Source: Escherichia phage JM17
Direction: 5' to 3' (one strand)
Length of the DNA stretch: 64,000 bases
Sequence record: PP400779
The translations under genes and the position numbers were made by a program. This document shows, one piece after another, positions 56,022 to 58,790 of the stretch. Position 1 is the first letter of the stretch. Each line of letters opens with the position of its first letter. A model generated the notes under the pieces. That model did no database searches and was not told the DNA's origin. It worked only from the letters and a program-made list of their open reading frames with translations.

Positions 56022-56043
56022 GGAGACTTCGGTCTCCTTTCGG
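56022..56043 (+). terminator. rho-independent terminator
   Basis: GGAGAC-TTCG-GTCTCC followed by TTTCGGGGTTT. Confidence 0.5.
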
Positions 56044-56103
56044 GGTTTACATCTTCCTCTAGGCATGATATGATGTACTTACACAAACCAAGAGGAAAAC
56101 ATT

Positions 56104-56478
56104 ATGAATATGTCTCAAGCAATTTTTACTGCAATCACCGAAAACACAACTGTTGAAGTAGTTTCTCCGCTGGCAACCTACGTTATTCTTGCTCCTAAAA
56201 CTATTGTATCTCGTATGGAAAACATGGGCAAACGTATCGTACAAATTGTTGGAGCTGGAAATCAAAAACTTGATTATCTACGAACCATCAAAGCTTATGA
56301 ACATTTCCAACTCGAAAAAGGTTCTCCTATCCAGGTAGAACTCGTAAATGGTGATATCGTTCGAGCAATGTTCCATCATTTCTATGCATTGAATGACCCA
56401 TCTAAAGCGGTTCGTTTAATTGCATATGACGCAAACCAAAACGAAATCAACGCAGATGTATCTAAATTACGTTTTTAA
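56104..56478 (+). CDS. hypothetical protein
   Basis: 124 aa. Confidence 0.45.
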   Translation: MNMSQAIFTAITENTTVEVVSPLATYVILAPKTIVSRMENMGKRIVQIVGAGNQKLDYLRTIKAYEHFQLEKGSPIQVELVNGDIVRAMFHHFYALNDPSKAVRLIAYDANQNEINADVSKLRF

Positions 56479-56533
56479 GTTTACTTCTCCAGTAGTTGTG
56501 TTATTATAGATCTATCAACTACCGGAGAACAAA

Positions 56534-56851
56534 ATGAAAACCATCGATTGTAAAGCAGAATTTAAGATTTTTTATCATGGTTCAAGTAGTTCAGCTAACA
56601 TCGAAAACATGCTTTGTCCTCCTGAAGAAACAGGAGTTCTGTCTGAAACTGGACGTAAGAAAAACTTGGATCGTGTATTCTTTACTGAAGATATCGGTTT
56701 AGCAAAGATTTATGCAGGACGAGCAGCACGCTCTTATGGAGGTGAACCACGTCTCTATCGAGTAATTTCTCCGGTAGATGTAGTTCAAATGAATGATACT
56801 AAAGGTGCTACAGTTTATCACGCTGAATGGGCATTTTGCGAGGAAATATGA
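56534..56851 (+). CDS. hypothetical protein with H-G-S, Tyr, Glu pattern (possible ART-like fold, speculative)
   Basis: KIFYHGSSS ... RLYRV ... TVYHAEWAF. Confidence 0.35.
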   Translation: MKTIDCKAEFKIFYHGSSSSANIENMLCPPEETGVLSETGRKKNLDRVFFTEDIGLAKIYAGRAARSYGGEPRLYRVISPVDVVQMNDTKGATVYHAEWAFCEEI

Positions 56852-57036
56852 GCAAATTAACTAAAGTTACTTTTATCGGTTGGTTTAAAAGCGGTGAGAT
56901 GTTCACTAAAGATATCATGTTATCAGGTGATCGCGAAGAAATCGAGTGGGTTACGGTACAACTTGCTGAAGTGAACAACGCATTAGTTAAAGCATTTGTT
57001 AATGACGAGAAAGTTTTCGAAGCAGATTTTCGATAA
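56848..57036 (+). CDS. small hypothetical protein
   Basis: ATGA overlap. Confidence 0.4.
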   Translation: MSKLTKVTFIGWFKSGEMFTKDIMLSGDREEIEWVTVQLAEVNNALVKAFVNDEKVFEADFR

Positions 57037-57107
57037 TTTTAAAATAACTGTTTACAAGCCCCACATACTGTGTTACTATCTTTCTATCAACTACAGAGGA
57101 AATTGAA

Positions 57108-57537: not shown

Positions 57538-57786
57538 ATGGAATTATTCGTAGCTAGTTCAGTAGCAGTTTTAATCGCAGGTATTGGTTCAATCATCATT
57601 TACATGTTGCCTTGGGTAATAGCACTTATTCGTGGCACAAAAAGCACAACAGCAATCTTCTTTGTATCTTTACTCTTTAACTGGACGATGATTGGTTGGA
57701 TTGGAACTTTAATTTGGTCTATCGTTGCCGAAAAGAAATCTGCTCAGCAGCCTCAACAAGTAATTATTATTCGCGAAAAAGAATAA
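57538..57786 (+). CDS. small two-TM membrane protein (superinfection-immunity-like)
   Basis: 82 aa; two TM helices with WTMIGWIGTLIWSI. Confidence 0.4.
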   Translation: MELFVASSVAVLIAGIGSIIIYMLPWVIALIRGTKSTTAIFFVSLLFNWTMIGWIGTLIWSIVAEKKSAQQPQQVIIIREKE

Positions 57787-57844: not shown

Positions 57845-58138
57845 ATGAAAAAGTTATCATTGGCAGCAATCTTACTTGCAGTATCATGTGCACCGTCTCC
57901 AGTTACGGCAGGTTATGATAAAGACCTCTGTGAGTGGTCAATGACTGCAAATCAAGAAGATGTTGAACAACAAATCTTCTCTGATATCATGAACATCACT
58001 AAACGAGACCGTCCTAATATGGTTAATAAAGTTGTTGAACAACTTAAGTCTGGCGGTATCATGCAGTACAATTATGTTTTGTATTGTGACCCTAATTTCG
58101 ATAACAAAGATATCGTAACCGAAATCACAGGTGAATAA
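57845..58138 (+). CDS. secreted/periplasmic 97-aa protein (spackle-like by size and position)
   Basis: signal peptide MKKLSLAAILLAVSCA; located between 41 and 61. Confidence 0.35.
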   Translation: MKKLSLAAILLAVSCAPSPVTAGYDKDLCEWSMTANQEDVEQQIFSDIMNITKRDRPNMVNKVVEQLKSGGIMQYNYVLYCDPNFDNKDIVTEITGE

Positions 58139-58790
58139 TATGATTTATTATATGCACAAAAATGCGCCATTTAAATATGGTAAATTTCCTAATGCACAAT
58201 GTTATAATATAACGCCGAATGAAAATAATAACGGATACCATCTCGGTGTAATTTTTGTAATTGTTAAAGATAACGAAATCGTTGCCTGGGCAGATTTTAA
58301 AGGTACAACATATGATGTTAATCCTGTGCCTTTCACATATTACAATATAATGGATTTGGCATATGATTATAATTGGTTTACTCATGACACGTTGGCTCAT
58401 ATTGAAGGTGTAGGATTTGACATCTCTTATTCTAGCTATTCATTATGTCCTATGAGCCGATCTCACGGTAAAGATGTATCATATCTTTCAATTCGGAAAC
58501 GTGTAAACTTCAAACGTAGTACAGAGTATGTTGGTGGACTCTTTGTTAAAGATAATAAAATAACCCGTATTAGTTATCCTTTAAGTGTAGGTCAAAAAGA
58601 TGTTGATGTTGATTTAGACTTAACTGAAAGTAACATTAATCGTATTGCTTCTGTATATTTTGATATCGATGAAAAAATTGTAGTGTGTGGATACGAATTA
58701 CCACCTGAAGAAAAGGCTGAAACAATTGAAGTCGAATTAGAAATTTCTGTTGATGACCAAATATTTAACGCATTTATGAATCGAGGTTAA
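58131..58790 (+). CDS. hypothetical protein
   Basis: 219 aa. Confidence 0.45.
   Translation: MNNMIYYMHKNAPFKYGKFPNAQCYNITPNENNNGYHLGVIFVIVKDNEIVAWADFKGTTYDVNPVPFTYYNIMDLAYDYNWFTHDTLAHIEGVGFDISYSSYSLCPMSRSHGKDVSYLSIRKRVNFKRSTEYVGGLFVKDNKITRISYPLSVGQKDVDVDLDLTESNINRIASVYFDIDEKIVVCGYELPPEEKAETIEVELEISVDDQIFNAFMNRG

Follow-up and report, generated by a model that had tools for sequence, protein, structure and literature searches.

The window analysed here, a stretch of 64,000 nucleotides from Escherichia phage JM17 (PP400779), contains a 105-aa open reading frame (ORF) lying directly upstream of dmd. A sequence-only reading had speculated, from a His-Gly-Ser motif, Tyr-containing strands and a late Glu, that its product might be a minimal ADP-ribosyltransferase (ART). 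Is this small protein an ART and, if so, what kind of ART is it, and does it work together with its neighbor Dmd? The T-even phages are the classic system of phage ADP-ribosylation, through Alt, ModA and ModB. The gene discussed here is missing from T4, which may explain why nobody has studied it, and our literature searches for enzymatic or genetic work on it found none.

The Gene and Its Conserved Residues

The ORF runs on the + strand from an ATG at 56534 to a TGA at 56851, and its product has the sequence MKTIDCKAEFKIFYHGSSSSANIENMLCPPEETGVLSETGRKKNLDRVFFTEDIGLAKIYAGRAARSYGGEPRLYRVISPVDVVQMNDTKGATVYHAEWAFCEEI. It is a real gene: the product matches PHROG 2110, a PHROG of unknown function, over its whole length (E 3e-60), a set of 5.8 billion proteins holds 149 close homologs of it, and it recurs in 609 phage records. 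The gene and the elements predicted in its product are the following.

56534..56851, + strand: Arr-like ART-fold protein of PHROG 2110, assigned from the ORF, homology and the AlphaFold2 model
Residues 13-18 of the 105-aa protein: predicted strand b1, with H15-G16-S17
Between b1 and b2: predicted loop with E38-x-G40-R41-K-K-N44
Residues 48-51: predicted strand b2, with F49
Residues 54-68: predicted helix, with Y60 and R63
Residues 72-81 and 84-87: predicted strands b3 and b4
N87-D88...G91: predicted loop
Residues 94-97 and 99-104: predicted strands b5 and b6, the latter with E103

Conservation was assessed in an alignment of 33 sequences from the T4-like clade and in a wide-family alignment, which comprises the domain regions of 37 sequences drawn from the relatives found by an exhaustive HMMER profile search of 1.84 billion cluster representatives (221 representatives at E<=1e-3). 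The H-G-S of the segment KIFYHGSSS (residues 11-19) was rightly singled out, since H15-G16-[S/T]17 is invariant in all 33 T4-like and all 37 wide-family sequences. It aligns with H19-G20-T21 of Arr, and H15 thus takes the place, where b1 ends, of the NAD+-contacting residue, a His in the H-Y-[EDQ] clade. The other two members of the supposed triad have to be revised. The invariant Tyr, Y60, sits in a predicted helix and not in a strand, and the position aligned to Y49 of Arr is an invariant Phe (F49 on b2), in which the aromatic character is retained and the hydroxyl is lost. In the H-Y-[EDQ] clade the Tyr of this strand (b3 of Arr) stacks against or binds nicotinamide. The late Glu of HAEWAF (residues 96-101) corresponds to E98, a variable site occupied by A, D, E, K, Q, N or S; we dropped it as a catalytic Glu because the position varies across homologs.

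Across the 37 sequences of the wide family, H15, G16, E38, F49, A57, Y60, G69 and G70 are invariant and P29, P30, R41, T51, A61 and G91 nearly so. The T4-like clade adds K43, N44, D53, R63, S67, A92, F101 and E103 to the conserved residues, and its C-terminal sheet is strongly conserved (G91-A92, V94, Y95, A100, F101 and E103). E103, on the last strand, was also weighed as a possible catalytic Glu. All 33 T4-like sequences have it, but the family as a whole does not conserve it. In three lineages the codons at this site also serve the following gene as its Shine-Dalgarno sequence, so that the GAG-GAA pair may place E103 under a dual constraint. The residue is also kept in the Aeromonas and Vibrio versions, which do not have the Shine-Dalgarno geometry.

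Fold and Homology to Arr

The AlphaFold2 (AF2) model, calculated from the 33-sequence alignment of the T4-like clade, has a mean pLDDT of 86.3 and a pTM of 0.77, and all five models reach at least 81.6. Foldseek comparison with the PDB returned Arr as the top match (9iaf; probability 1.00, E 8.8e-3, TMq 0.58) and Tpt1 as the second-best fold match (8tfi; probability 0.91, TMq 0.45), with further entries of the ART superfamily among the top matches, namely EcPltA (pertussis-like), cholera toxin A subunits, RES and ParT. In the viral structure library BFVD, orthologs came first, followed by a 94-aa siphovirus "Rifampin ADP-ribosyl transferase" (TMq 0.74) and then by PcfJ-like/polyvalent proteins, a putative RNA 2'-phosphotransferase and a PARP. 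Structure comparison thus recognises a split beta-sheet ART core in the predicted model. The fold check that the sequence-only reading had proposed came out on the side of an ART, and a confident unrelated fold did not appear. What stands of the suggested minimal ART with an H-Y-E pattern is therefore the fold and the His, and what falls is the Tyr, replaced by Phe, and the Glu that had been named, which is unconserved.

Sequence profiles are independent of the AF2 model and give a second, separate support for the ART assignment. With the single protein or the T4-like-clade profile, searches of Pfam, NCBIfam and PDB sequences gave no match, and the Pfam family PF12120 (Arr-ms; gathering cut-off 25 bits) did not match the 105-aa protein at E<=1. 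The link to Arr emerged only after the profile had been broadened with distant representatives. The wide-family profile matched the Arr of M. smegmatis (2hw2/9iaf) at E 5.9e-4, and 20 of the 37 relatives individually matched PF12120 at E<=0.01 (best 2.6e-8), distant relatives passing its gathering cut-off with 27.5, 29.4 and 26.9 bits. Alignment of the wide family by hhalign with named NAD(+)-rifampin ADP-ribosyltransferases reached 95.7% probability (E 8.5e-9 over 76 columns), and the T4-like clade alone aligned with Arr at E 1.7e-4, with the register of E-x-G-R and F/Y unchanged.

In these alignments E38-x-G40-R41 is paired with E40-x-G42-R43 of Arr-ms and V48-F49-F50-T51 with I48-Y49-I50-T51; the following helix and the GG...[VI]Y.V.P.G strand align as well, and the C-terminal third of the family is left unaligned to Arr by hhalign. 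On the evidence of the profiles, the 105-aa protein is homologous to Arr, the homology being transitive through its relatives and confirmed by hhalign, and the homologous region is the N-terminal, NAD+-binding two-thirds of Arr. The alignments show that HG[S/T], E-x-G-R and an aromatic b2, all of which line the NAD+ site of Arr, have been retained. Because the HGT motif, the loop between b1 and b3 and the aromatic residue of b2 are all kept, NAD+ binding is the most economical prediction. An ART fold with an NAD+ pocket is in our view well supported by the profiles and the model, whereas an active enzyme with a canonical triad is a prediction only.

Locus and Gene Neighborhood

Shigella phage JK45 and Escherichia phages related to it share ~99% identity with the window. 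The gene order is uvsX, gene 40, gene 41, a 124-aa ORF, the ART gene, dmd (61.5) and a 61.4-like gene, followed by an Imm-like gene, spackle and AdfA (61.2). The features closest to the ART gene are listed below.

56104-56478, + strand: 124-aa ORF (phrog_10668) between gene 41 and the ART gene, absent from T4
56480..56507, + strand: candidate T4-early/sigma-70-like promoter, TTTACT-16 nt-TG-TATTAT, from a consensus scan
56840..56851, + strand: putative translational-coupling junction, GAGGAA plus ATGA overlap
56848..57036, + strand: dmd (gene 61.5), the second cistron (PF17587, 4.5e-20; phrog_2102)

The promoter-like site falls in the spacer of 55 nt that precedes the ART gene. Beyond it, no other site of this kind was found on the + strand between 56507 and the end of dmd, and the next one is at 57051; the total number of promoter-like sites, 7 against 5.1+/-2.1 in shuffled sequence, is not above expectation. 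The spacer between gene 41 and dmd in T4 carries the same element (GTTTAC-N17-TG-TAT..T). At the other end of the gene, the ATG of dmd (56848) overlaps the TGA of the ART gene (56849-56851) as ATGA, a 4-nt overlap in the JK45 annotation, and the GAGGAA codons of E103-E104 provide the Shine-Dalgarno sequence for dmd. With this overlap, a Shine-Dalgarno sequence inside the ART gene and a single promoter-like site upstream, the ART gene and dmd look like one early bicistronic unit, as far as consensus matches indicate. The GAGGAA-N3-4-ATG geometry recurs in Klebsiella and Acinetobacter phages in front of unrelated downstream ORFs (locus L002, 2808-2818; locus L003, 2779-2791).

Several other features of the neighborhood deserve mention. 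The 124-aa ORF belongs to no Pfam or NCBIfam family and has an early-type promoter-like site of its own (56046-56074); together with the ART gene it makes up the material between gene 41 and dmd that T4 does not have. Just past the stop of gene 41, at ~56022-56037 (+), there is a hairpin of 6 bp, free of mismatches and capped by a UUCG tetraloop (GGAGAC-TTCG-GTCTCC), which is probably an RNA-stabilising or terminator element and was passed over by the terminator scan because of its short T-run. The protein encoded at 57538-57786 (+), between the 61.4-like gene and spackle, has 82 aa and an Imm_superinfect domain (PF14373, 1.5e-15); T4 has no gene there. Gene 61.2, at 58131-58790 (+), encodes AdfA, the anti-DarT factor A (PF23813, 2e-117), and the ART-fold gene of the phage thus has, 1.3 kb further downstream, a gene for a factor directed against a host DNA ADP-ribosyltransferase. 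As the AdfA gene is so near, we also weighed a DarT-like single-stranded-DNA ART and rejected it: there was no Pfam match, and DarT was outside the top 50 fold matches. With dmd, the imm-like gene, sp and AdfA, the interval between genes 41 and 61 looks like an anti-defence and exclusion island.

Distribution and Wider Domain Contexts

The 609 phage records in which tblastn found the ART are almost all large T4-like Straboviridae genomes, with identities mostly of 60-100%. Escherichia is the host in 215 of them, Klebsiella in 116, Acinetobacter in 68 and Aeromonas in 62, and the others include Enterobacter, Cronobacter and Vibrio. Across the phages of Escherichia, Klebsiella, Acinetobacter, Aeromonas and Vibrio the ART is still 60-70% identical. 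Judged by this sequence conservation, purifying selection acts strongly on the Arr-like core of ~95 residues in hundreds of T4-like phages, infecting at least six host genera. T4 has neither the ART ORF nor the 124-aa ORF, and its dmd directly follows gene 41. In an Acinetobacter phage, however, the ART gene is still situated between those for helicase and primase, suggesting that this position is old and that T4 probably lost the gene.

The gene directly upstream of the ART belongs to PHROG 7439 in Klebsiella phage KLB1 (locus 1593-2468) and to PHROG 7204 in Aeromonas phage avDM1 (1680-2441). These two PHROGs cross-match, which hints at a conserved upstream partner of the ART outside the Escherichia clade.

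The domain of ~95 residues is also found inside large proteins, the longest with 3,924 aa, where it resides together with ART-PolyVal (a second, unrelated ART), NUDIX, lambda-type portal and 2H/Acb1-like phosphoesterase domains, and also with GNAT, Toprim, CHAP, LPD23 and DUF7178. The embedding proteins include P0139, P0143, P0163, P0166, P0175, P0177 and P0225, all relatives from the profile search. From its domain composition, this architecture is that of the polyvalent proteins of phages and conjugative elements. In cellular genomes the family is nearly absent, as a search of 185,579 species-representative genomes with two peptide patterns found only 2 loci. One of them adjoins an rve transposase in a CPR MAG, and neither was informative as to a conserved antitoxin partner.

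Alternative Explanations

That no solved structure and no sequence family comes closer than Arr, and that the records of Klebsiella phages KLB1 and KLB15 carry the label "rifampin ADP-ribosyl transferase", would suit a genuine rifampin/rifamycin-inactivating enzyme. The hallmarks of Arr are the HGT motif, Y49 and the catalytic D84, which is part of a 100%-conserved DPN[VL] motif, and rifampin is bound by the b5-b6 loop, [LV]TK[KR]P, and by helix a2, which forms a hydrophobic pocket (PMC6092378). Neither the DPN[VL] motif nor the [LV]TK[KR]P loop is present in the 105-aa protein. Its P80-G91 segment (the b5-b6 loop) has 12 residues versus 18 in Arr-2 (EPTGPFEDDPNLTNKKFPGN), which makes the rifampin-binding loop 6 residues shorter and leaves it without DPN[VL]TK[KR]P. 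Moreover, the protein stops directly after the last core strand and is thus devoid of helix a2 (M[RK][DE]xL, ~126-141), and with it of the main rifampin pocket (M126, L130, L133, A139 and I141 of Arr-ms). The equivalog rifampin_ARR of NCBIfam (NF033144) does not match the 105-aa protein, and the relatives of the protein reach ~26 bits where the cut-off is 130. The H-Y-[EDQ] clade has its catalytic acid or Gln after b4/b5 (D84 in Arr, E148 in DT). The topological equivalent of D84 is N87-D88, in a region unaligned to Arr; D or E occupies position 88 in 29 of the 33 T4-like members and in 20 of the 37 wide-family sequences, and the 37-sequence alignment has no family-wide acidic residue at the D84 position. 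With a loop shorter by 6 residues and no helix a2, the target would not be rifampin; from the sequence, the missing pocket effectively refutes rifampin inactivation, which we hold to be highly improbable, and the rifampin labels in some GenBank records over-interpret homology. A different possibility is that the NAD+/ADP-ribose pocket has been kept for something other than transfer, the protein binding or sequestering NAD+ or an NAD-derived immune signal, or acting as an NAD+ glycohydrolase. The invariance of the predicted pocket residues (H15, F49, Y60 and E-x-G-R), the unconserved position of the Arr catalytic acid and the very small size of the protein, which at 105 aa has no obvious substrate-binding appendage, are all consistent with it. 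Nevertheless, conservation over the whole C-terminal sheet exceeds the needs of a simple pocket, and many active ARTs, such as Tpt1 and the H-Y-I/L PARPs, have no acidic third residue. No ART-fold sponge is known to us either. We regard a protein of this sort as unlikely.

The neighborhood of dmd has led to yet another explanation, in which an ART toxin, possibly RNA-modifying, and its cognate antitoxin Dmd would form a type II pair, providing superinfection exclusion or abortive infection to the benefit of the phage. Iyer, Burroughs, Anantharaman and Aravind (2022, Viruses 14:1977, PMC9503650) described a p0068-like ART directly upstream of Dmd in phages of Escherichia, Shigella and Salmonella, counted the p0068-like family among the viral ARTs most often seen in the H-Y-[EDQ] clade, and proposed that ART and Dmd are a toxin-antitoxin system, speculating on RNA substrates. 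Matched by description, the published arrangement and frequency fit the present locus and its distribution over 609 records. Besides having been put forward by the authors who described the arrangement, a pair of this kind is favored by the adjacency and common orientation of the two genes, their ATGA overlap and their one shared promoter-like site. The ART-linked Dmd is also a distinct subtype, only ~56% identical to the Dmd of T4, and its ~233 records compare with ~260 for the ART at >=80% identity; finally, the ART domain is also found in toxin-like and polyvalent contexts. Yet co-occurrence fails in both directions. Dmd is present in 800 phage records, restricted to T-evens of Escherichia, Shigella, Yersinia and Salmonella, and 567 of these have a T4-type Dmd (<60% identity to the Dmd found here); in T4 itself and in several hundred phages of the T4 type, dmd comes straight after gene 41 and the ART is missing. 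Conversely, at least 300 ART-bearing records (Klebsiella 116, Acinetobacter 68, Aeromonas 62, and Enterobacter, Cronobacter and Vibrio) fall in groups where Dmd is not detectable. The ORFs that follow the ART there are related neither to Dmd nor to one another: a 58-aa TM protein (phrog_7619) in Klebsiella (Slopekvirus), a 30-aa ORF in Acinetobacter (Lazarusvirus), a 79-aa protein of phrog_7668 in Aeromonas (Biquartavirus) and, in a Vibrio phage, a gene on the opposite strand. The downstream ORFs of Klebsiella, Acinetobacter and Aeromonas belong to different PHROGs, with no match to Dmd in Pfam at E<=0.1. Since T4-type dmd occurs without the ART, and the ART of phages from other hosts without Dmd, the partnership is lineage-specific and not obligate. 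Dmd, the discriminator of mRNA degradation, is the antitoxin of host RnlA/LsoA, and a host target for it has thus already been demonstrated. Furthermore, ATGA overlaps are commonplace in the gene arrays of T4, the interval between genes 41 and 61 generally houses accessory and anti-defence genes (sp, imm-like, AdfA), and the predicted local co-transcription would be expected just as much of two accessory genes that are independent of each other in a dense early array. The toxin-antitoxin explanation of PMC9503650 is unsupported by the wider distribution found here, and we find it improbable for this locus.

A Putative Early ART Effector

The explanation that we prefer, with a probability of roughly 0.6 based on sequence comparison and the predicted model, is an active early ART effector with a target other than rifampin. 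The ART gene and dmd would be transcribed early from their own T4-early-type promoter within the 41-61 accessory region. Early in infection, the protein would bind NAD+ and transfer ADP-ribose to a host or defence-related target. As there is no family-wide acid at the D84 position of Arr, the nucleophile would probably be activated by the substrate itself, through a phosphate or hydroxyl of an RNA, a nucleotide or a small molecule. Such chemistry would be analogous to that of Tpt1 or of the mono-ARTs of the H-Y-[non-acid] type, and Arr itself O-ADP-ribosylates a small molecule. The invariant basic G-R-K-K-N loop would fit a phosphate-rich ligand and, taken with the lack of a universal acid and the missing rifampin pocket, suggests a different, perhaps self-activating acceptor. 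The fusions to polyvalent proteins and the near absence from cellular genomes favor an effector acting at the start of invasion, and occurrence in polyvalent proteins fits such a role better than that of a self-addiction toxin.

A narrower version of this proposal, which we put forward only tentatively, is that of an active, non-canonical minimal ART, relying on H15, F49/Y60 and the E38-x-G-R-K-K-N loop, with no obligatory acid on b5, that would carry out an early ADP-ribosylation of a non-protein substrate. RNA ends, nucleotides and small-molecule immune signals are examples of such substrates, and the protein would be a counter-defence factor. If true, it would be a fourth ADP-ribosylating effector of the T-even phages beside Alt, ModA and ModB, and would reveal an ancestral, non-antibiotic activity of the Arr family. 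More generally, if the protein is active, knowledge of its substrate would bring to light a new reaction of early host takeover or counter-defence, and could show what role Arr-type enzymes had before their recruitment for rifamycin resistance.

The ART prediction as such is of low novelty, because it is already found in the literature (PMC9503650) and in several GenBank records. The label "(putative/rifampin) ADP-ribosyl transferase" is carried by HX01, Phynn, SemperBestia, KLB1, DLP3 and Lazarus, and the HX01 protein is 99% identical to the one analysed here. Our work confirms it and corrects the residues: H15 stands, F49 occupies the place of the Tyr, and E98 can be disregarded. It also provides evidence against calling the protein a "rifampin ART" and against an obligate toxin-antitoxin relationship between the ART and Dmd.

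Comparison with Known Systems

The family most similar to the phage protein is Arr (PF12120; PDB 2HW2, 9IAF, 9IBA). Both share the [FY]-[YL]-H-G-[TS] motif of b1, E-x-G-R in the NAD loop between b1 and b2, the [VI]-[FY]-[FI]-[TS] strand b2 and the next helix, as well as G-G/G-R-G ... and the [VI]-[YF]-x-V-x-P-x-G strand, and both are very small stand-alone ART domains. The phage protein differs from Arr in its length (105 aa versus 140-150 aa) and in an extra, invariant basic K-K-N insert after G-R. It is also phage-borne and predicted to be early, whereas Arr is a chromosomal or integron resistance gene.

Tpt1/KptA, the RNA 2'-phosphotransferase, has an ART fold without a catalytic Glu or Asp, and it is the phosphate of the substrate that attacks NAD+. 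By analogy, it is a plausible mechanistic counterpart for a family that has no conserved acid. Tpt1 has, in addition, an N-terminal RNA-binding lobe and an R-H-R-R catalytic tetrad. It shows no sequence-level match to the phage protein, and the TMq between them is only 0.45.

The Alt, ModA and ModB proteins of T4 are likewise ADP-ribosyltransferases of the T4 phage family that act in early host takeover. They are, however, much larger and unrelated in sequence, and Alt is packaged in the phage head. Alt, ModA and ModB belong to the R-S-E clade (PMC9503650), while the 105-aa protein stands on the H-Y-[EDQ]/Arr-like side of the ART superfamily.
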